A stretch of DNA of 12,320 bases from a virus (taxonomy: Duplodnaviria > Heunggongvirae > Uroviricota > Caudoviricetes): positions 1-12,320 of IMG/VR virus record IMGVR_UViG_2851955134_000006; one strand, given 5' to 3'. This document shows, one piece after another, positions 1 to 11,084 of the stretch. Each line of letters opens with the position of its first letter. The first letter of the stretch is position 1. Position numbers and translations under genes: made by a program. The notes beneath the pieces are model-generated. The model was not told the origin of the DNA. It worked only from the letters and a program-made list of their open reading frames with translations, and made no database searches.

Positions 1-1230
1 ATGAGCAGAGCACTTAACAAACTGAGCGATACACAGCTAAGGAAAATCAACGGCACACCCGCCCAAAAAACAGTCTTTCTTAATGACGGTGGAAACCTGA
101 CCGTCAGGCATTCAACCAGCGGCCTTTTAACCTGGTATTTCACCTACAGGGCCGGAACGGGAAGGGGAGCACGACCGGAACGGATTAAGCTGGGAAATTA
201 TCCTGATCTGAGCCTGAAAGCAGCCAGGGAAAAAGCCGCACAGTGCCGCGCATGGCTGGCTGAGGGGAAAAATCCACGTCATGAGATGAATTACACCGTA
301 CAGGAAGCGTTAAAGCCTGTAACGGTTGGCGATGCGCTCACCTACTGGCTTGAGTCGTACGCAAAGGAAAACCGTGTGGATTATGACCCACTGAAAAAGC
401 GGCTAAATAATCACGTAATACAGCACATTGGCGCTATGCCGCTGGATAAATGCGAGCTACGGCACTGGCTGGCCTGTTTTGATCGGGTGGCAAAGCAAGC
501 CCCTGTTTCCGCCGGATTCCTGCTACAGACATGCAAACAGGCGCTTAAGTTCTGCCGGAAGCGGCGCTATGCAATCAGCAACGTTCTTGATGATATGAGT
601 GTTGCTGACGTTGGGAAAAAACCGGATATAAGTCAGCGTGTCTTAAGTAACAAAGAACTTGGCGAATTATTGCAGGCACTGGACAAAAAAATATTTTCCC
701 CTTACTACGTCGCACTAATCCGCCTCCTGATTGTCTTCGGAGCCAGGACAGTAGAACTGAGGCTATCGGAGATCGGGGAGTGGGATTTTACCGAAATGCT
801 CTGGACCGTTCCGAAGGAGCACAGCAAAACGAAGGTAGCCATATTCCGGCCCATACCGGAAGCGATACTGCCGTTCGTCACGCAGCTGGTGGAGCAGAAC
901 AGGCACACGGGCTTATTGCTGGGGGAAGTGAAACAGGAGGCCAGCGTATCGCAGTATGGAAGATTAGCGCACAGGAGGCTTAAACACCCTCACTGGTCAC
1001 TGCATGACATCCGGCGCACCTTTACAACGATGCTGAACGATTTAGGCGTGGATCCTCACGTCGTGGAGCAGCTTACAGGCCACCAGATGCCAGGAATGCA
1101 GCGAGTTTATAATCATTCCCGTTATCTGGATGCGAAACGCAATGCGCTGGATATGTGGGTGGAGCGGTTGGAGATACTGGCGGGAGCACATGAAAACGTA
1201 ACCACGCTACCAGTAGCCAGAAGAAAATAA
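1..1230 (+). CDS. int: Site-specific tyrosine integrase, P4-like family
   Basis: 409-aa ORF. N-terminal arm-binding-like region (LSDTQLRK...LNDGGNLTVRH...WYFTYR), C-terminal catalytic region with R..HxxR..Y-type signature (LHDIRRTFTT...GHQMPGMQRVYNHSRY). ATG sits at base 1, so the true start could lie upstream of the window. Confidence 0.9.
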   Translation: MSRALNKLSDTQLRKINGTPAQKTVFLNDGGNLTVRHSTSGLLTWYFTYRAGTGRGARPERIKLGNYPDLSLKAAREKAAQCRAWLAEGKNPRHEMNYTVQEALKPVTVGDALTYWLESYAKENRVDYDPLKKRLNNHVIQHIGAMPLDKCELRHWLACFDRVAKQAPVSAGFLLQTCKQALKFCRKRRYAISNVLDDMSVADVGKKPDISQRVLSNKELGELLQALDKKIFSPYYVALIRLLIVFGARTVELRLSEIGEWDFTEMLWTVPKEHSKTKVAIFRPIPEAILPFVTQLVEQNRHTGLLLGEVKQEASVSQYGRLAHRRLKHPHWSLHDIRRTFTTMLNDLGVDPHVVEQLTGHQMPGMQRVYNHSRYLDAKRNALDMWVERLEILAGAHENVTTLPVARRK

Positions 1231-1604: not shown

Positions 1605-1793
1605 GTGTTAAGCACTGATCGCTTTATACGTGAAAAAGAATGCGAAAAGCTAACAGGCCTTAGCCGCTCATGCCGCTACCGCCTGGAAAAGGCCGGACAA
1701 TTCCCATCACGGCGTAAGCTGGGCGGTCGTTCCGTTGGCTGGTCTTTATCCGAAGTTCTGGCATGGAAGGAAAGCTGCGAGGCAGTTCACTAA
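1605..1793 (+). CDS. alpA: AlpA-family (prophage CP4-57 regulatory protein-like) HTH transcriptional regulator / excisionase-like protein
   Basis: 62-aa ORF with GTG start and SD-like aaggggg 6 nt upstream. Sequence pattern TGLSRS..YRL...GQFP...LGGRSVGW..SEV..W is typical of AlpA/Xis-like MerR-type HTH proteins, and its position directly after int is typical of P4-like islands and Gram-negative PICIs. Confidence 0.8.
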   Translation: MLSTDRFIREKECEKLTGLSRSCRYRLEKAGQFPSRRKLGGRSVGWSLSEVLAWKESCEAVH

Positions 1794-3989: not shown

Positions 3990-4289
3990 ATGAAACTTAA
4001 ATATTCTGGCTTTACTGCCAGCGGCCCCGCTCGGCCTGAAATCCGCCCCGGCGATATTTTCAAAGATAACTACGGCGGCACGGTAACAATTAAAAGCGTG
4101 GAGGAACGTCGCGTAACTTACCGCCGTGATGGCTACGAATATGACTGCGTGATGCCTGTTTATCAGTTCCGGCGTGATTTTTCTCTGGTACAGAACGCAA
4201 CACGCGGTAAGCCCACCAGCAGGGAAAAAGCACGGGAAAATATTAAGAAAATAAAAAGCATGCTCAGCGCATCCAGAGGTAAAAAATGA
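3990..4289 (+). CDS. Hypothetical protein (99 aa), basic C-terminus
   Basis: SD ccggaga upstream; its stop overlaps the start of the replicase gene (ATGA at 4286-4289). Confidence 0.55.
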   Translation: MKLKYSGFTASGPARPEIRPGDIFKDNYGGTVTIKSVEERRVTYRRDGYEYDCVMPVYQFRRDFSLVQNATRGKPTSREKARENIKKIKSMLSASRGKK

Positions 4290-5692
4290 AACTGGCACCG
4301 AACGTAAAACTGTTACCGAAAGATAAACACACTGAGGCGGTTATTTTTGCGGGTGATAATGCTCACTCCTTTGCAGAACATTACATGATTGCACAGGCCA
4401 AAAAAGCAGGCGATCCCATCCCTCCGGTTTACCTGGGCCGTTATCAGTTAAGCGAACTGGACAACTTACAGATTGTTGATGAAGGACGATACAGGGCAAA
4501 GGTCATACGCGCCGGAAACCTGGACGATATGCAGATGCTGACCATTGCCACCAAACTGGCGATCGCAGGTGTCCAGGAAGCACGGTTACTTTCAGAGAAT
4601 TTCGAACTGCTGGAGGACTGGAGCGAGCAACTACCGCGGCTTAAAGAAACCTGGGAACGCGGGGAAAGTCTGGTCATGAATGGTGGAAAGCGAAAAATCA
4701 CACTTCCCATCTCATGGGGTTCTGAGGGATTCGACGCGCAGCAAAGCTACGTAATTAAGGGGCTTATTCCGGCTGAGTCATTATGCAGCACCTACGGGGC
4801 CAGCGGTTCTTATAAATCGTTCCTGGCTATTTCCTGGTCGTGCCATGTTGCCACAGGTATGGCATGGGGAGGCCGCAGGGTAAGTAAGGGCGCTGTTATC
4901 TATATCGCTGGCGAAGGCAGTATGGGCGTAAAACGCCGCGTTAAGGCGTGGGAGATAACCCATGACAAGGTGGTTACAGATTTGTGCATCATTAACGCGC
5001 CGGTATTCCCCGCATCGCCTGACTATGTGGAGCAGGTTATCAGGACTGCCGGACTTGTTAAGAGCAGAACGGGCGAAAATGTGCCGCTGATTGTGATCGA
5101 CACGCTGGCCCGTTGCTTTGGTGGGAATGATGAAAATGATTCCCGTGATATGGGCGCATTTATCCAGGGGTGTGACGCGATAAAGCAGGCTACAGGGGCC
5201 ACGGTGCTGGTGGTTCACCATTCCGGCAAGGATGAAACAAAGGGGGCGCGTGGTTCCAGCGCATTCCGTGCCGCGCTTGATGCAGAGTACCGAATCAGCC
5301 GGGAAAATTCAGACGTTACAGCACTGGTGGCGGCGTGTACGAAGATGAAGGACGCAGAGGAGCCAAAAGAAAGCGCATACGACCTTAAAAGCGTGGAGGT
5401 GTTCACCGATACAGATGGCGAAGAAATTGTGTCTATGGTGGTGATTGACGTTCCCCGCGCCCCTGCTGAACTGGAGCGCATCGAGGAAGCAGGCAACAAA
5501 TCGGAGAATCACGCCGCGCTATGGCAGTGCATCAGAACGCGGACGGCACACAAAGAGCCATGCACTATCGCCCTTCTCCGCGACGATATGAAAAAGCTGG
5601 GGTATGAGATGAAGCACTTCCGGCGCTGGCTGTCCAAGCTGGAAAAAGACGGCGTGATTTGTGTCGATGGGGATGATGTTTACCCACTGTAA
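4286..5692 (+). CDS. Replication initiator ATPase / helicase, RecA-like P-loop NTPase (RepA/AAA_25-like), satellite replicase
   Basis: 468-aa ORF with a P-loop-like segment (LIPAESLCSTYGASGSYKSFLAISW), a Walker B-like hhhhD segment (PLIVIDTLARCFG) and a VVHHSGKDETKG segment typical of RepA/DnaB-type ATPases. Immediately followed by an iteron array. Confidence 0.8.
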   Translation: MKLAPNVKLLPKDKHTEAVIFAGDNAHSFAEHYMIAQAKKAGDPIPPVYLGRYQLSELDNLQIVDEGRYRAKVIRAGNLDDMQMLTIATKLAIAGVQEARLLSENFELLEDWSEQLPRLKETWERGESLVMNGGKRKITLPISWGSEGFDAQQSYVIKGLIPAESLCSTYGASGSYKSFLAISWSCHVATGMAWGGRRVSKGAVIYIAGEGSMGVKRRVKAWEITHDKVVTDLCIINAPVFPASPDYVEQVIRTAGLVKSRTGENVPLIVIDTLARCFGGNDENDSRDMGAFIQGCDAIKQATGATVLVVHHSGKDETKGARGSSAFRAALDAEYRISRENSDVTALVAACTKMKDAEEPKESAYDLKSVEVFTDTDGEEIVSMVVIDVPRAPAELERIEEAGNKSENHAALWQCIRTRTAHKEPCTIALLRDDMKKLGYEMKHFRRWLSKLEKDGVICVDGDDVYPL

Positions 5693-5895
5693 AAAGTGGG
5701 TAGTAAAAGTGGGGAGAGTGGGGAATTTAACAAAATTGAAACATAATTCCCCACTTTCCCACCTGTATACATCCAAAAAAGTGGGGAGCAAAAAACGCAA
5801 TGAAAAACAAAGCATTAGATTCACTCAAAAAACGAAGTGGGGAGCAAGTGGGGAATTTAAAAAGTGGGGAGCAAAAGTGGGGAGTGGTGGGGAAT
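5693..5895. repeat. Iteron array, putative origin of replication of the element
   Basis: At least eight direct copies plus one inverted copy of the core AGTGGGGA, in two flavours (AGTGGGGAGCA and AGTGGGGAATTT), at roughly 5708, 5717, 5780, 5836, 5847, 5863 and 5876, with a variant at 5695 and the inverted copy at 5746-5757. AT-rich spacers. Sits directly downstream of the replicase gene. Confidence 0.7.
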
Positions 5896-5938
5896 GAATA
5901 AAAACCGAACAGCAGGACAAAATACAGAAGGTGAATTT

Positions 5939-6262
5939 ATGAACACTGAAATTGAAACACTGAGCATATCAACTGCCCTTCCTGGCTGGTGGGCTAAGTT
6001 CAAAGACGACGACGGCACGGAATGGTATAGCCCAATTGCTGCATGGGCGCTTTGTGAGATCCACCATTTCGGCACCGGAGATACTTACCGCGAAATCTTA
6101 CCCGTGCTGACCAGTGAGGTGGGCGTGAGTCCGCATAGTCCTGATGAGGGAATGTTCGAGTGCCTTTATCTGCCAGATAAGAAGTTTGTTCACTGCGGTG
6201 AGTCATGGGTATTTGCCTGGTATCCGGTTAACGACAGCAGCAATAGCGGTACTCTGGAGTAA
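5939..6262 (+). CDS. Hypothetical protein (107 aa; alternative start at ATG 5894 gives 122 aa)
   Basis: SD aggtga 4 nt upstream of ATG 5939. The longer ORF-track version starts inside the iteron array and is less likely. Confidence 0.5.
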   Translation: MNTEIETLSISTALPGWWAKFKDDDGTEWYSPIAAWALCEIHHFGTGDTYREILPVLTSEVGVSPHSPDEGMFECLYLPDKKFVHCGESWVFAWYPVNDSSNSGTLE

Positions 6263-6265
6263 ATC

Positions 6266-6508
6266 ATGAAGGTAAACCACAAAAAGACAGATCACCGCGC
6301 CATTGACCTTACAGAGCACTGGCTGAGGGTGGCGATAAAAATCATCGACCGCAACGCGGGAGAAGGATACGCGAAGGAACATCCCGAACTGATTAGCGCA
6401 TTCATGACAACGGCAGCTGCAAACTTTTCCACGCTGACAGAACGGGAGATTGCCGAAGCGCAACAGGTGACAACCATCAACGTTAAAACCAGTGAGGTGG
6501 AATCATGA
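6266..6508 (+). CDS. Hypothetical protein (80 aa)
   Basis: SD ggag 6 nt upstream; its stop overlaps the SSB start (ATGA). Confidence 0.5.
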   Translation: MKVNHKKTDHRAIDLTEHWLRVAIKIIDRNAGEGYAKEHPELISAFMTTAAANFSTLTEREIAEAQQVTTINVKTSEVES

Positions 6509-6915
6509 CAGCACAGATAGCGGCTTACGGGCGGCTGGTGGCTGACCCACAGTTAAAGACCACCAGCAAGGGTACACAAATGGCGATGGCGAGTATGGCT
6601 GTCCCCCTGCCGTGCAGCCAGGCAGATGACGGAACGGCGACGATGTGGTTATCCGTCCTGGCGTTTGGCAGACAGGCCGACGCACTGGCAAAACACCAGA
6701 AAGGCGAACTGGTGAGCGTGGCGGGTAACATGCAGGTGAGCCAGTGGACCGGACAGAACGGGGAAACGCGGCAGGGCTGGCAGGTTATCGCAGACAGCGT
6801 AATCAGTGCGCGGACAGTGCGACCGGGCGGAAAAACACGCAAAACCACAGGCACACAGGGTAATCAGCCACCAGCGGGAGACGATGACCCTTACGGTGAT
6901 GATATTCCGTTCTGA
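6505..6915 (+). CDS. ssb: Single-stranded DNA-binding protein (short, phage/plasmid-type SSB)
   Basis: 136-aa ORF with an OB-fold-like N-terminal region, a Gly/Gln/Pro-rich linker and the hallmark acidic SSB C-terminal tail DDDPYGDDIPF. SD gaggtgg upstream. Confidence 0.8.
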   Translation: MTAQIAAYGRLVADPQLKTTSKGTQMAMASMAVPLPCSQADDGTATMWLSVLAFGRQADALAKHQKGELVSVAGNMQVSQWTGQNGETRQGWQVIADSVISARTVRPGGKTRKTTGTQGNQPPAGDDDPYGDDIPF

Positions 6916-6925
6916 GGGGGTGACG

Positions 6926-7198
6926 ATGGTACATGACCGGATAGCGGAGGAACTGGAGGCGAAAGGATTTTACCGGAGGGCGGCCGCGCGATGGGGTGAA
7001 GTTATGTGGCTGGTGAGCACTGACAAGGAGCGCGAACAGGTGGCAATGCGACGGCTGGAATGTTCCCGGAAGGCACAGAGGCCACCGGAGCCACCGGATG
7101 ATTTAGGCGCTCTGAAAAGGTCAGTTAATCGCACTGAAAAACAAATGGGGATAGCTGGTATTGGCAAAGCAATATGGCGCAACTACCCGCAGAAGTGA
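6926..7198 (+). CDS. PerC-family transcriptional regulator-like protein (90 aa)
   Basis: ATG at 6926 with SD gaggggg upstream. The N-terminal segment MVHDRIAEELEAKGFYRRAAARWGEVMWL matches the PerC/Pch-family pattern (LE.KG.YRRAA.RW) as recalled from memory. The ORF track's longer version overlaps ssb and lacks an RBS. Confidence 0.5.
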   Translation: MVHDRIAEELEAKGFYRRAAARWGEVMWLVSTDKEREQVAMRRLECSRKAQRPPEPPDDLGALKRSVNRTEKQMGIAGIGKAIWRNYPQK

Positions 7199-7438: not shown

Positions 7439-7645
7439 ATGGCAGAAGAGAAAAAAGGCGGGGTGACGGTCTACATAAGCCCCGACATCGTGGAGGCGCT
7501 CAAGGAACGCCACCAGCAGAATGTAAAAGCAGGCATTGCGGCAGGACTTGATCCGCTGGCGATGGTTGAGCCGTCAACAGGCTGGCAGGTGCGCACCTAT
7601 TTACGTGCGGCGCTGGGTATCAATCAGGTTCACGGAGGTGAATAA
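7439..7645 (+). CDS. Hypothetical protein (68 aa), first gene of the head module
   Basis: SD aagaggaa upstream; its stop overlaps the capsid gene start (TAATG). Confidence 0.5.
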   Translation: MAEEKKGGVTVYISPDIVEALKERHQQNVKAGIAAGLDPLAMVEPSTGWQVRTYLRAALGINQVHGGE

Positions 7646-8700
7646 TGACAGGCAAAGCAACGGCACTTACAACTAACCAGCTTTTCGCGTACCTGAATCG
7701 CGGGGATATTGCGGATTTTAAATTCAGCCCTCTGTTTACCACGCTGTTTTTCCCGAACGTGGCGACCTTCAACACCCAAAACATCATGCTGGACACCCTG
7801 GACATTGAAGAGGTTACGATGTCAGCGTTCTGTTCGCCTATGGTGGGTAGTCAGGTCCAGCGCGATAAAGGGTACGAAACCAGCACGATTAAACCCGGCT
7901 ACATGAAGCCAAAGCACGAAATCGATCCAACAAAGACCATCATGCGCATGGCTGGAGAAGATCCGGCACAGCTTAACGATCCAACTTACCGCCGTATGCG
8001 CCTGATTACTGGCAACATGCGCCGCCAGATAAACGCCATTAAGGCGCGCGTGGAATGGCTGGCGGTGAATGCGGTAACGACCGGAAAAAACATCATTGAG
8101 GGCGAAGGCATAGAACGCTATGAAATCGACTGGAAAATACCGGAAAACTGCATCATACAGCAGGCCAGTGGTAAAAAATGGTCCCAGCAGGATAAAGACA
8201 TGCACGACCCAATCTATGACATCGAGCTTTATGCTGATCAGGCAGGTTGCCCCGCCAACGTCATGATTATGGGCGGTGAGGTATGGCGCACATTACGCAG
8301 CTTTAAAAAATTCCGTGAACTGTACGATCTTTCCCGTGGGTCAGAATCCGCCGCCGAGCTGGCCTGTAAAAACCTGGGCGAAGTGGTGAGCTTTAAAGGC
8401 TATCTTGGTGATCTGGCCCTTATCGTCTATTCCGGCAAATACACTGACAGCGACGGCACCGAAAAATATTTCCTTGAGCCTGATTTGCTGGTCCTGGGTA
8501 ACACCAACAATAAAGGGCTGGTGGCCTATGGTGCGATTATGGATCAGGAAGCGGTAAGAACGGGCGCAACGCAAAACATGTACTACCCGAAAAACTGGAT
8601 TGAGGACGGCGATCCGGCGATTGAGTACGTGCAGACGCACAGCGCACCGCAGCCGGTACCGGCAGATATTCGCAAATTTGTTACCGTCAAAATTGCTTAA
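7645..8700 (+). CDS. Major capsid protein, lambda gpE family
   Basis: 351-aa ORF with SD ggaggtg upstream. Blocks of similarity to lambda gpE as recalled from memory: DFKFSPLF..LFF near the N-terminus, PGYMKPKHEIDP (lambda PGYVKPKHEVNP), DPTYRRMRLITGNMR (lambda DPAYRRRRIIMQNMR), and C-terminal YPKNWIEDGDPA...SAP...FVTVKIA (lambda YPKNWVTTGDPA...SAP...FVSVQLA). Confidence 0.9.
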   Translation: MTGKATALTTNQLFAYLNRGDIADFKFSPLFTTLFFPNVATFNTQNIMLDTLDIEEVTMSAFCSPMVGSQVQRDKGYETSTIKPGYMKPKHEIDPTKTIMRMAGEDPAQLNDPTYRRMRLITGNMRRQINAIKARVEWLAVNAVTTGKNIIEGEGIERYEIDWKIPENCIIQQASGKKWSQQDKDMHDPIYDIELYADQAGCPANVMIMGGEVWRTLRSFKKFRELYDLSRGSESAAELACKNLGEVVSFKGYLGDLALIVYSGKYTDSDGTEKYFLEPDLLVLGNTNNKGLVAYGAIMDQEAVRTGATQNMYYPKNWIEDGDPAIEYVQTHSAPQPVPADIRKFVTVKIA

Positions 8701-8711
8701 CGGGGGATTCT

Positions 8712-9047
8712 ATGGACGCTCCATACATTGAGTTATTTTCAGGCAGCCAGCAGGTATCCACGACGCTGGTACATTTTGCCGCTGATGCTGGCGTTATTCA
8801 GGAATTTACCCCTCTGATGCTGGCAGACAATGGCGAGTTTAAGGCGTGGGATGGTCAGGAATCTGGCAAAGCTGTTTATCTGACTTCGCACCCCGTGGAC
8901 ACGTCAAAGCAGAAATCAGCACAGTGTTACAAAACGGGGATATTCAATATTGCCGCCGTTAACTGGCCTGATAGCGTCGACACCGATGCGAAAAAATGCG
9001 CCGCCTTTGCGGGTTCCGGCGTATCCGTTCAGCCGCTGGCCCGATAA
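8712..9047 (+). CDS. Head decoration protein, lambda gpD family
   Basis: 111-aa ORF with SD cggggga upstream. Similarity to lambda gpD as recalled from memory: TPLMLADNGEFKAWDG (lambda TPLMLDTSSRKLVAWDG), YKTGIF (lambda YKSGTF), and C-terminal KKCAAFAGSGVSV (lambda KKRTAFAGTAISIV). Confidence 0.8.
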   Translation: MDAPYIELFSGSQQVSTTLVHFAADAGVIQEFTPLMLADNGEFKAWDGQESGKAVYLTSHPVDTSKQKSAQCYKTGIFNIAAVNWPDSVDTDAKKCAAFAGSGVSVQPLAR

Positions 9048-9059
9048 GCAGGGGGAACG

Positions 9060-9473
9060 ATGGCAACGAATGAAAGTATCATGACGCTACCGCTGGCGAG
9101 TAAATTTAAAGCCGAAGCGCGGGCAATGGCTGACAGAGGTTTATCAACCTACGAGGCCATACACCGACTAAACAAACTGGAAGAACAGGACAAGCCGCGC
9201 GCTGATGCGATTATGGCGCTTCATGAATCTGACGACTACCAGCCGCTGTTACGTGCAATGGCTAACGTGCCTTGTATCGATGTTGGTACGGCTAAAAGCA
9301 TCCTTAGCATGACCATAGAGCAGGAACGCCCGAAGGTTGCACCAGAGCTTACTTCAGCCTTTGAAAACTTTATGGACATGCACAGCCCGAAAGCCGTATC
9401 AGCTGGCATGGCATACGATGGCAGAACCCCGGGCGATGACGGCGACATCGATCGCATACTGAAAACCATCTGA
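9060..9473 (+). CDS. Hypothetical protein (137 aa), last gene of the head module
   Basis: SD agggggaa upstream; followed 7 nt later by a terminator. No recognisable family. Confidence 0.55.
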   Translation: MATNESIMTLPLASKFKAEARAMADRGLSTYEAIHRLNKLEEQDKPRADAIMALHESDDYQPLLRAMANVPCIDVGTAKSILSMTIEQERPKVAPELTSAFENFMDMHSPKAVSAGMAYDGRTPGDDGDIDRILKTI

Positions 9474-9479
9474 GACAAG

Positions 9480-9502
9480 GCCGGAGAAATCCGGCTTTTT
9501 TT
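9480..9502 (+). terminator. Rho-independent terminator ending the head operon
   Basis: Stem gccgga / tccggc, loop gaaa, then TTTTTTT. Nearly identical to the terminator at 7206-7227. Confidence 0.65.
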
Positions 9503-9507
9503 GCGGG

Positions 9508-9575
9508 TCCTTTCCGGCATGTGGACCCGTTACGGGGCGTCGACCTCGCGCGTTTTCGCTATTTATGACGTTTTT
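9508..9575 (+). other. Lambda-like cohesive-end site (cos-1: cosQ-like flank, cosN, start of cosB)
   Basis: CGTTACGGGGCGTCGACCTCGCGCGTTTTCGCTATTTATGACGTTTTTCCG closely matches the lambda cos region as recalled (…GGGCGGCGACCTCGCGGGTTTTCGCTATTTATGAAAATTTTCCGG…). The predicted 12-nt cohesive end GGGCGTCGACCT (9535-9546) differs from lambda GGGCGGCGACCT at one position. Located about 90 bp upstream of a Nu1-like gene on the same strand. Confidence 0.75.
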
Positions 9576-9635
9576 CCGTGAAGGTGACACCACCACCACT
9601 TGATTAACATTTAATCGCATGATTAAGGTAACATT

Positions 9636-10076
9636 ATGATTGATAAAGCTTGTTTTGTGAGTCAGCAGGAAATAGCAGAACATTTCAAGGTCAACAGAAC
9701 CACTATTCGCGCATGGACCAAACAGGGCATGCCATATCTTGATGCGGATCGCGGAAAGTCCGGCGGTTATCACATCGGACACACATTATTCTGGTGCATG
9801 GGTAAAAGCCATCTTGATGCTATTGAGTACCACGGAGAAACCAGCGCACTGGAAAAGATTATGGTTGCCAGGTTGATTGCGTCAGAGCGCGACGAGTATT
9901 TCAGTGAAGAAACAGAACAGCGATTTGATGAAGGTTTGCATATTTACGGCTATTCACCGGAAGATGTGAGCAAGGCACGAAATAAAATGGCTGGCTTTCT
10001 GGCTGGGTGGCGTCATGCCGTAAGCGTTCGCCGTGCCAGCATGGAACAATCAGTCGTTACAGAACAGCAAAGTTAA
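9636..10076 (+). CDS. Nu1-like terminase small subunit homolog (N-terminal winged HTH); candidate packaging-redirection (Rpp-like) protein
   Basis: 146-aa ORF. N-terminus FVSQQEIAEHFKVNRTTIRAWTKQGMPYLDADRGKSGG resembles lambda Nu1 (QLADIFGASIRTIQNWQEQGMPVLRGGGKG, recalled from memory). The C-terminal region is shorter and unrelated to the Nu1 gpA-binding region. No large terminase gene follows. Confidence 0.7.
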   Translation: MIDKACFVSQQEIAEHFKVNRTTIRAWTKQGMPYLDADRGKSGGYHIGHTLFWCMGKSHLDAIEYHGETSALEKIMVARLIASERDEYFSEETEQRFDEGLHIYGYSPEDVSKARNKMAGFLAGWRHAVSVRRASMEQSVVTEQQS

Positions 10077-10079
10077 AAA

Positions 10080-10260
10080 TCACTTTCTGTTACGCCATCA
10101 AATACGCAATACAACAACCACGTATTTTTTTAAAACTATTTGATTCAATTAGCATTTTTTTATTTTTAGCATCAAAAAAACACTATCAGGTTGTTGTATT
10201 GCTCTTTATTTTTACTTAGTTATCAAATGGATATGACAAACAATTAAACAACAACCTCCC
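10080..10260. repeat. AT-rich region with a 14-bp perfect inverted repeat and short direct repeats
   Basis: gcaatacaacaacc at 10106-10119 and its reverse complement ggttgttgtattgc at 10189-10202 (69 bp apart), a third partial copy aacaacaacc at 10247-10256, and direct repeats of ttagcat in a T-rich context between the arms. Confidence 0.45.
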
Positions 10261-10272
10261 TCTAAAAAAGCT

Positions 10273-10345
10273 CATAAATAGCGAAAAACCGCGAGGTCGA
10301 CGCCCCGTAACGGGCCATAATTCCAGGAAGGACCCGACGACACCA
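10273..10345 (-). other. Second lambda-like cos site (cos-2), inverted relative to cos-1
   Basis: The reverse complement of 10273-10345 reads ggtgtcgtcgggtccttcctggaattatggCCCGTTACGGGGCGTCGACCTCGCGgtttttcgctatttatga. A 25-bp core is identical to cos-1, with flanking similarity on both sides (gggtcctttccgg versus gggtccttcctgg; cgttttcgctatttatga versus gtttttcgctatttatga). Cohesive-end equivalent at 10294-10305. Confidence 0.7.
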
Positions 10346-10369
10346 GACTATCAGAGCGATGGGCGCACA

Positions 10370-10651
10370 ATGACAGAAGCCGAACTACTGGGATTAATCC
10401 GCCGCGTTACCGGAATCAGCCAGCAGCATGACGAACAGGCCACGCAGCCGGACAGCGTGACCGCCGAAAATTACGCGTGTGTTGTTGCTGAGGTGATGCG
10501 CCGTGATGGTATTGAGCTTAACGGCGTGGATATGCGCAACATACGAACCAGAGTCCTTGAGTTGCTGGCATACCGTCGCCGTTCTCAACAACGGAGGGAG
10601 AGCGCGAAAAATACTTACCAGTGGAAGAAGCCGGAACGACTGCGTACGTAA
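10370..10651 (+). CDS. Hypothetical protein (93 aa)
   Basis: ORF with a weak SD; followed about 70 bp later by a plus-strand hairpin with a T tract. Arg-rich C-terminus. No recognisable family. Confidence 0.4.
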   Translation: MTEAELLGLIRRVTGISQQHDEQATQPDSVTAENYACVVAEVMRRDGIELNGVDMRNIRTRVLELLAYRRRSQQRRESAKNTYQWKKPERLRT

Positions 10652-10967: not shown

Positions 10968-10991
10968 GGTGTAGTTAATGGTGTAGTTAAT
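10968..10991. repeat. Perfect tandem duplication of a 12-bp unit (ggtgtagttaat x2), preceded by the palindrome accgatcggt
   Basis: Read directly: 10968-10979 and 10980-10991 are identical; the palindrome is at 10961-10970. Confidence 0.6.
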
Positions 10992-11084
10992 TTGCGATTT
11001 TTGGCACTTTTTTTAGTGTAAGTTGTTTAATTAAATCAATACGTTATTGAAAATAAGTTATAGATATATCCCATTTATGACTCC

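Follow-up and report, generated by a model that had tools for sequence, protein, structure and literature searches.

Origins of phage-inducible chromosomal islands (PICIs), as set out in PMC6092414, lie immediately 3′ of the initiator gene and comprise two iteron sets flanking an A+T-rich region. The same paper reports that rep plus ori of EcCICFT073 maintains a plasmid, replication being tested there for this allele only, and lists EcCICFT073 and EcCI042 as named PICIs in Table S1 (PMC6092414). In the pathogenicity islands of Staphylococcus aureus (SaPIs), the Reps use a C-terminal winged helix to bind 6-12 iterons just downstream of rep, and load themselves (PMC9371898). Here we analyse an array of short repeats at positions 5693-5895 of a 12,320-nucleotide stretch catalogued as virus record IMGVR_UViG_2851955134_000006 (this whole stretch is called the window), which follows a gene, rep, annotated in relatives as encoding a "helicase RepA family protein". 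Judged by its gene content the window is a PICI of E. coli, of the EcCI042/EcCICFT073 type, and the array is very probably its vegetative replication origin, recognised by the upstream Rep. Because gene order, position and layout match the published PICI origin, we regard the array as an instance of a kind of element already described. The features of rep and of the array are the following, in window coordinates.

4286-5692, plus strand: rep, coding for a 468-aa initiator-helicase (Pfam AAA_25, E 2.5e-42).
5471-5689, plus strand: the part of rep that codes for the predicted winged helix (aa 396-468; His444 codon at 5615-5617).
~5490-5895, plus strand: proposed exchangeable specificity cassette, made of the winged-helix coding segment and the array, delimited by identity in 100-nt bins.
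5681-5688, minus strand: S0, a copy of AGTGGGTA in the last rep codons, Tyr-Pro-Leu.
5695-5724, plus strand: left iteron set, all direct, with S1 at 5695-5702 (AGTGGGTA), S2 at 5708-5715 and S3 at 5717-5724 (both AGTGGGGA).
5725-5747, no strand: spacer between the convergent S3 and S4, 87% A+T, candidate melting site.
5748-5763, minus strand: inverted iterons S4 (5748-5755, AGTGGGGA) and S4b (5756-5763, GGTGGGAA).
5764-5770, no strand: TGTATAC TA-step core, at the centre of the divergent pair S4b/S5 and iteron-independent.
5780-5787, plus strand: S5, a single direct iteron (AGTGGGGA).
5788-5835, no strand: central A-rich gap of conserved length, 69% A+T, with 56% A on the top strand.
5836, 5847, 5863 and 5876 (starts), plus strand: S6-S9 of the right iteron set, direct (AGTGGGGA).
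5886-5893, plus strand: S10, direct (GGTGGGGA), last of the right set, which spans 5836-5893.
5894-5896, plus strand: ATG adjoining S10, in frame with the ORF (open reading frame) annotated at 5939-6262.

A motif search of the 12.3-kb window finds AGTGGGGA exactly eight times within 5708-5883, in direct orientation at 5708, 5717, 5780, 5836, 5847, 5863 and 5876 and inverted at 5748-5755; the flanking chromosomal gene holds the sole further exact copy (minus strand, 12140). One-mismatch copies are found at 5695 (plus, AGTGGGTA), 5886 (plus, GGTGGGGA) and in the final rep codons (minus, AGTGGGTA), and the array consensus reads (A)AAGTGGGGA. A first-pass annotation, made from the window's letters alone, had delimited the array accurately, as the motif search and a reading of 5400-6200 both show, and had rightly put it directly 3′ of the replicase gene: the first repeat begins 3 nt past the rep stop codon, in the position of a PICI origin. 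Its A+T-rich spacers are equally present at 5725-5747 and 5788-5835. Its "eight or more direct copies" are reached only when one-mismatch copies are counted (nine, against seven exact ones), and the one inverted copy that it reported is adjoined by a second, degenerate one, S4b.

The array is real, and its clustering of repeats is far beyond chance. Indeed, the most frequent 8-mer per 203 nt reached at most four copies in 300 dinucleotide-preserving shuffles of the window and at most three in 2000 shuffles of the array segment alone, while eight are observed. One could still suppose a tract devoid of function, a low-complexity purine run born of chance or slippage, or else coding sequence, as the top strand is strongly purine-rich and mechanical ORFs cover the region (5661-5897 on the plus strand, 5519-5824 on the minus strand). 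However, shuffles never came near eight copies, the repeat slots are conserved across genera while their core switches in concert, and the relatives carry 1-3-nt indels within the array region, where no gene is annotated. These comparative data effectively refute the chance or coding reading, which retains next to no probability.

The comparison covered about 90 loci: a close set of 10 E. coli relatives, from about 98% down to 70% DNA identity, and a distant set of 80 further loci drawn from a scan of one genome per species, with members in Xenorhabdus, Pantoea, Pectobacterium, Serratia, Morganella, Kosakonia, Enterobacter, Klebsiella and even Oceanospirillaceae. The closest relative in a complete genome, inserted in tqsA of E. 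coli Ch1, is 97% identical over the rep-ori stretch; locus L001, the closest of our set and at the tqsA site, shows 97.1% identity over window 4286-6300 and a Rep 99% identical. Among the 10 E. coli relatives the region following rep aligns slot for slot and the core changes in concert, reading AAGTGGGG, AAGTGGG[C/A/T] or AAGTGAG[G/T]. The position of S4 is invariant and its class switches in all relatives, and S4b co-varies in 9 of 11.

For the distant loci the layout was compared in a sample of 20, together with the E. coli loci, so that all repeat classes were covered. In these sampled loci the order is kept whatever the sequence of the repeat: rep stop, two or three direct iterons, one or two inverted, one direct, a gap (about 50-60 nt, rich in A+T in most of them) and three to five further direct ones. 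The window itself follows this order with three direct, two inverted and one direct iteron, a gap of about 50 nt and five direct iterons, that is, with the two sets of a PICI origin (left, 5695-5787; right, 5836-5893) on either side of an A+T gap. The comparison of iterons in related islands, which the first-pass annotation had put forward as a check, therefore finds slots and layout kept while the core changes with the recognition helix of Rep.

Rep falls into an N-terminal domain (about residues 1-130), a helicase core of the RecA type (aa 146-320) and, at its C-terminus, a winged helix. Residues 155-320 match the hexameric helicase RepA of RSF1010 (1g8y, E 3e-4), and both Walker A (GASGSYKS) and Walker B (LIVID; hhhhD) are invariant in 37 homologues. 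Domain searches detected neither a primase nor a helicase superfamily 3 (SF3) domain in Rep, and an NCBIfam search returned no model. Since the fold search with a full-length model was uninformative, a model of aa 396-468 alone was used in its place. This segment is predicted with a mean pLDDT (predicted local distance difference test score) of 89 and a pTM (predicted template-modelling score) of 0.77, in a helix-strand-helix-helix-hairpin topology, and its top Foldseek matches are all winged helices, including Fur, DtxR and LexA, with E-values that are weak for this small domain. In the model F445-K454 forms the recognition helix and His444 is its N-cap.

How does this locus compare with the described systems? 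EcCICFT073 has the same gene order (int, alpA, DUF4222, rep, ori, a hypothetical gene, SSB, perC, capsid-like genes) and its origin directly 3′ of rep, with iteron sets around A+T-rich DNA. Its Rep, however, is a 584-aa D5_N/DUF5906/Pox_D5 protein of the P4-alpha-like SF3 type, whereas that of the window is RecA-type (AAA_25), and its iterons are YTGTCTACC, in many copies on both strands, where the window has AAGTGGGG, nearly all direct. EcCI042, from E. coli 042, carries the same Rep family (466 aa, 61% identity) and the same origin layout, but has Asn at the position of His444, AAGTGAGG in place of AAGTGGGG as iteron, and the tqsA site instead of the window's allC.

The likeness to the SaPI Rep/ori pairs appears to lie in a self-contained initiator-helicase whose C-terminal winged helix reads short repeats placed after rep, in an A+T-rich centre and in matched Rep/ori specificities. 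The SaPI Reps are AAA+ 3′-5′ helicases (SF3/MCM-like), a class to which the RecA-fold core of the window Rep does not belong, and we detected no sequence relationship between the window Rep and the SaPI Reps; the resemblance would thus be a functional analogy and not a membership. In P4 the iterons are octamers, and alpha needs a second repeat cluster, crr. P4 alpha joins a helicase and a C-terminal winged-helix origin-binding domain in one polypeptide (PMC2777425). It has a DnaG-type primase and an SF3 helicase, unlike the window Rep with neither domain detected, and the window has no second cluster; the locus falls outside the alpha/ori-crr kind, with which only the winged-helix logic is common. 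RSF1010 and the IncQ plasmids share with the window a homologous helicase core and an iteron-based origin whose repeats enclose no DnaA box. IncQ plasmids have separate proteins as iteron binder (RepC) and helicase (RepA), and iterons of about 20 bp; in the window a single protein joins binder and helicase, and the repeats measure 8-9 bp. Finally, classical iteron plasmids have 17-22-bp iterons, DnaA boxes, a non-helicase initiator and control by handcuffing. The window departs from the RepA/RepE/pi/TrfA origins in the following: an 8-9-bp core, an initiator that is a helicase, no DnaA box with up to one mismatch inside the array (DnaA-box search), and no second repeat array within the window (motif search). 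The expression "textbook iteron origin" used in the first-pass annotation is hence apt for the short-iteron, initiator-helicase kind (PICI, SaPI, P4) and not for the plasmid RepA/pi/TrfA kind.

The link between array and Rep comes from their co-variation. We read the helix class of each locus from the residues just before the helix motif RW[LVI]xKL. A K-H motif goes with a dominant GTGGG core (at least 8 copies, at most one GTGAG) in 13 of 14 loci, K-N with a dominant GTGAG core in 26 of 28, R-K-S with GTGCGG in all eight, and the 29 K-K loci have a dominant GTGGG(GG) core. The alternation of His and Asn is found again in three helix backgrounds (EMK_FRRWL, DTK_L.RW and N.K_F.RWL), and a near-isogenic comparison opposes L004 (EMKHFRRWLYKL, GTGGGG) to L008 and EcCI042 (EMKNFRRWLYKL, GTGAGG). 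Pairing of His or Lys with guanine, and of Asn with adenine, is a common amino-acid/base preference.

The same link is seen in the mosaic structure of the loci. Compared with the window, L002 is 50-76% identical before 5490 (one 100-nt bin reaching 90%), rises to 90-98% in 5490-5890 and then collapses; its Rep is only 65% identical overall, yet its repeats are identical to those of the window. L003 shows the converse, with 93-100% before 5490, 60-83% in 5490-5890 and 0-44% after, a Rep 96% identical overall and yet different repeats. L010, of the GTGAG class, has 53-87% before 5490, 65-77% in the cassette and 93-98% after 5890. The right breakpoint recurs in the megablast matches H10-H15, which end at query 1617-1619, that is window 5902-5904. 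Given this identity mosaic, the repeat class is not followed by DUF4222, the helicase core or the downstream genes, but solely by the ~200 nt that code for the winged helix. From co-variation and mosaicism together, the winged helix and the array form a co-adapted, exchangeable unit, as expected of an initiator domain and its origin. The winged-helix model, the co-variation and the joint inheritance of the cassette thus agree with specificity of the SaPI-Rep type, binding itself being predicted. With position, layout and island context they concur in pointing to an origin served by the upstream replicase, as the first-pass annotation had proposed. Selection for different iteron classes in co-resident islands was considered, and left no sign: pairs of loci in the same genome share their class (L012/L022, L016/L021 and L017/L020 in Xenorhabdus, L031/L061 in Pantoea, L054/L055 in Pectobacterium).

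We see about even chances that this unit is a plug-in cassette ruled largely by one residue, and that Rep stands for an uncharacterised class of self-loading initiator-helicases of the RecA/SF4 type. Under such a rule His444 would read G, and Asn would read A, at position 5 of AGTG[G/A]G, Lys would keep G, and Arg-Lys-Ser would retarget the protein to GCGGC. A single H444N change would then re-address Rep from AAGTGGGG to AAGTGAGG origins, and a RecA/SF4-type motor would do the job of the AAA+ motors in SaPI and P4, on a layout of three direct iterons, one or two inverted, the TA-step core, one direct, the gap and four or five direct.

Could the repeats instead be operators, through which Rep or another island regulator controls transcription into the SSB-perC-capsid genes, for instance as a roadblock, with replication not their main function? 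The array stands between rep and the next gene in a one-directional string of genes, winged helices such as those of the Foldseek matches are typical of repressors, and the ATG equivalent to 5894 is the annotated start of the next gene in most relatives, so that the last iterons overlap the ribosome-binding region and start codon of that gene. On the other hand, a promoter and terminator scan found no sigma-70-like promoter and no terminator in 5500-6100, the binding domain co-varying with the repeats is part of one polypeptide with a helicase whose Walker motifs are intact, and an array of at least ten sites in 200 bp, interrupted by a gap of conserved length (about 50 nt) and holding a TA core, is laid out like an origin, a layout common to loci in which the next gene differs. 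We consider an array of mainly regulatory function improbable, while a regulatory side-effect of Rep binding, besides replication, is possible.

Two refinements of the origin reading put forward by the first-pass annotation fared less well. It saw two alternating variants of the repeat as possible binding classes, one for initiation and one for copy-number handcuffing, and described an inverted copy at the end of rep, which might be read as a functional iteron. Both 3′-flank variants exist, GGGGAG in five slots and GGGGAAT in four, but they do not strictly alternate: the flanks run, 5′ to 3′, TAG, GAG, GAAT, inverted GAAT, inverted GAAA, GAG, the gap, then GAG, GAAT, GAG, GAG, GAAT. They differ at flank positions 7-10 only, outside the conserved AAGTG(G/A)G core. 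These positions drift in L001 and L004 despite identical or nearly identical winged helices. Indeed, L001, whose winged helix differs by one residue, reads GGGTA in S7, S9 and S10, and GGGGAAC in S8. In the other repeat classes the flanks are unrelated and show no slot-by-slot conservation. Moreover, the GAAT copies simply adjoin an A+T spacer (S3, S4, S7) or the ATG of the next gene (S10). Given this drift and these neighbours, we see no basis for two binding classes. As for handcuffing, nothing points to it and the window holds no second array with which to loop or pair; an element that would replicate only after induction has no obvious need for copy-number control.

The inverted copy at the end of rep does form a palindrome, TACCCACT-N6-AGTGGGTA, but it covers the last sense codons and not, as had been stated, the stop codon, its left arm ending one base short of the rep TAA (5690-5692). 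In favour of a functional S0, the site keeps AGTGGG in six of seven GTGGG-class relatives, and loci of other genera do have their first direct iteron within the final codons of rep, as in AAAGTGGGGGATTAA, which encodes K-V-G-D-stop. However, S0 does not follow the repeat class. Of the four GTGAG-class loci, all have GTGAG in S1, S4, S5, S8 and S9, and three have it in S2 (L008 reads AGCGAG), while S0 reads AGTGGG, AGCGGC or AGTGGT and never AGTGAG. It keeps AGTGG because Pro-Leu (CCA CTG) is conserved, these codons fixing five of the six core bases, and since it does not switch where the true slots do, it would be dispensable in GTGAG-class origins. In the window, S0 is probably a coding coincidence, at most an auxiliary site, and the model combining two binding classes with a functional S0 is, in our judgement, quite unlikely.

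The A+T-rich elements of the array are three candidate opening sites, among which we make no choice. The S3-S4 spacer contains the weakest duplex of the array (5725-5744, nearest-neighbour free energy -20.8 kcal/mol, against a window mean of -26.9 with a standard deviation of 2.8), and forms the 17-nt loop of a 16-nt, 94% inverted repeat, with a single-strand fold z of -2.6. The TA-step core at 5764-5770 belongs to a motif, [GA]TATA[TC], found 45-95 nt past the rep stop in 70 of the 80 family loci, against 1.5% of background 50-nt bins; it is placed between the inverted iteron or iterons and the following direct one, whatever the iteron class. Nucleation of melting, a site for a host factor and a priming site are possible roles for it. 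The central gap, 5788-5835, stands where the PICI and SaPI model places its AT-rich region, between two iteron sets (PMC9371898, PMC6092414). Family-wide it measures about 50-60 nt and holds the strongest A+T tract in most distant loci.

Following what is described for the SaPI Rep (PMC9371898) and for EcCICFT073, we propose that induction of the island by a helper phage would lead to synthesis of Rep, whose winged helices would bind to the AAGTGGGG repeats, the fifth base of AGTG[G]G being read by His444, the residue that begins the recognition helix. The repeat layout would concentrate Rep on both sides of the A+T/TA-step DNA (5725-5747, 5764-5770, 5788-5835), which would melt, starting at one of these stretches. 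The helicase ring would presumably load itself without a separate loader, with a polarity taken by homology, and the island SSB (6505-6915) would coat the single strands. Priming would probably fall to the host primase, as this rep allele has no recognisable primase domain, and copying to the host polymerase. The top strand is strongly purine-biased over 5650-5950 (in 100-nt windows the GC skew reaches +0.62 and the AT skew +0.46), and this bias could bear on which strand a ring helicase encircles.

Several points weigh against the origin reading. Our literature search found no experiment on this RecA-type rep allele, and the tested PICI replicon, EcCICFT073, has a different helicase and different iterons, while EcCIEDL933/Sakai Sp7 uses a third rep allele. 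The central gap of the window is only 69% A+T, and the three A+T/TA elements compete as melting site. The helix-iteron correlation is comparative and partly structured by phylogeny. Finally, the full-length Rep model is poor, of low confidence, in the helicase core, for which reason oligomeric state and polarity are assumed from RSF1010 RepA.

The layout of this origin is already known for PICIs, and the published EcCI042 carries both the same Rep family and the same layout. In our literature search we did not find the one-residue recognition series, the cassette boundaries or the conserved TA core, the iteron sequences of several E. coli PICIs given in Figure 2a of PMC6092414 lying outside the comparison. 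These are modest, testable additions, which do not overturn current understanding. Several hundred E. coli genomes (666-693 of 5426) and many islands of Enterobacterales carry "helicase RepA family" genes, and for annotation the 200 bp that follow these can be labelled as the island origin. PICI replication modules come as interchangeable alleles with unrelated motors, RecA-type in the window, SF3-type in EcCICFT073 and a third in EcCIEDL933, that all share an origin logic and an N-terminal domain. The natural His/Asn/Lys/Arg-Lys-Ser series offers a ready-made, testable protein-DNA recognition code, and potentially orthogonal rep-ori pairs for the engineering of satellites or inducible replicons.

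Rep aa 1-130 are confidently modelled as an alpha/beta domain (pLDDT 80-92) with no credible Pfam or PDB sequence match. Residues 1-135 (4286-4690) share 46% identity with the N-terminal part (4493-4885 in L091) of the EcCICFT073 Pri-Rep, an otherwise unrelated protein of the D5_N/SF3 type, and in both islands a DUF4222 gene precedes and overlaps rep. This suggests a shared adaptor domain of about 130 aa, perhaps a partner of DUF4222.

The island around rep and the array carries the other hallmarks of a PICI, with int, alpA, rightward one-directional genes (all on the plus strand from 1 to about 10.7 kb), a length of about 11 kb and less than a full set of phage genes, and it is collinear with EcCICFT073 and EcCI042. 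Its right flank is the chromosomal M20 peptidase gene allC, which it adjoins. An Rfam scan found no family in the whole window. The further genes are the following.

1-1230, plus strand: tyrosine integrase.
1605-1793, plus strand: AlpA (PF05930).
Between alpA and DUF4222, plus strand: small ORFs.
3990-4289, plus strand: DUF4222 (PF13973).
5939-6262 and 6266-6508, plus strand: two small ORFs.
6505-6915, plus strand: SSB.
6926-7198, plus strand: PerC.
7645-8700, plus strand: lambda-E-like capsid protein.
8712-9047, plus strand: D-like decoration protein.
9060-10651, plus strand: further ORFs.

Repeated protein-binding sites also occur in cosB-like regions, and the array might accordingly be imagined as a packaging signal, a cos/pac accessory site for the helper-phage terminase or for an island redirecting protein. 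PICIs of this type do carry cos sites and redirect packaging (PMC6092414). Yet the repeat core co-varies with the winged helix of Rep and not with any packaging gene, the array sits 3′ of rep as in every described PICI origin, and islands whose morphogenesis modules are quite different have this layout after rep too, as does a 17-kb circle resembling a capsid-forming PICI. A packaging role is in our view extremely improbable.

A capsid-forming PICI was also considered for the window as a whole and set aside, the gene set being that of the classic EcCICFT073/EcCI042 islands; the preprint on capsid-forming PICIs does not treat origins. The circle just mentioned, L093, was deposited as a K. pneumoniae plasmid (CP018459.1, pKp_Goe_795-4, 16,971 bp, circular). 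It carries int and a Rep of the window's family, of the R-K-S class, with an origin at 10030-10243 of the same layout and TGCGGCA iterons, and capsid, adaptor and terminase genes are also present. With these genes it resembles a capsid-forming PICI caught in circular, episomal form.

Exchange is also seen on the scale of whole modules. Strain LH50-c (NZ_CP100500.1, H81) has at its allC site an island about 97% identical over 74% of the window, which carries a "DNA primase family" rep instead. Whole rep-ori modules thus seem to be swapped between otherwise near-identical islands.

Some minor features of the window deserve mention. The gene at 5939-6262 is an extra one: in the window, as in L001 and L010, it separates the origin from the gene that elsewhere comes next after it (6266-6508). 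A 366-aa ORF at 1846-2946, of which only the last ~90 residues match phage "transcriptional repressor" families (phrog_6196), stands where L001 has several small ORFs, including Icd-like and YlcI/YnfO genes; given this replacement, we regard 1846-2946 as a variable region of the island. Towards the island's right end, at 10968-10992, non-coding DNA holds two tandem copies of GGTGTAGTTAAT, followed at 11049-11070 by very A+T-rich DNA that is the weakest duplex of the window. This tandem region may be part of the attachment site or a regulatory site.

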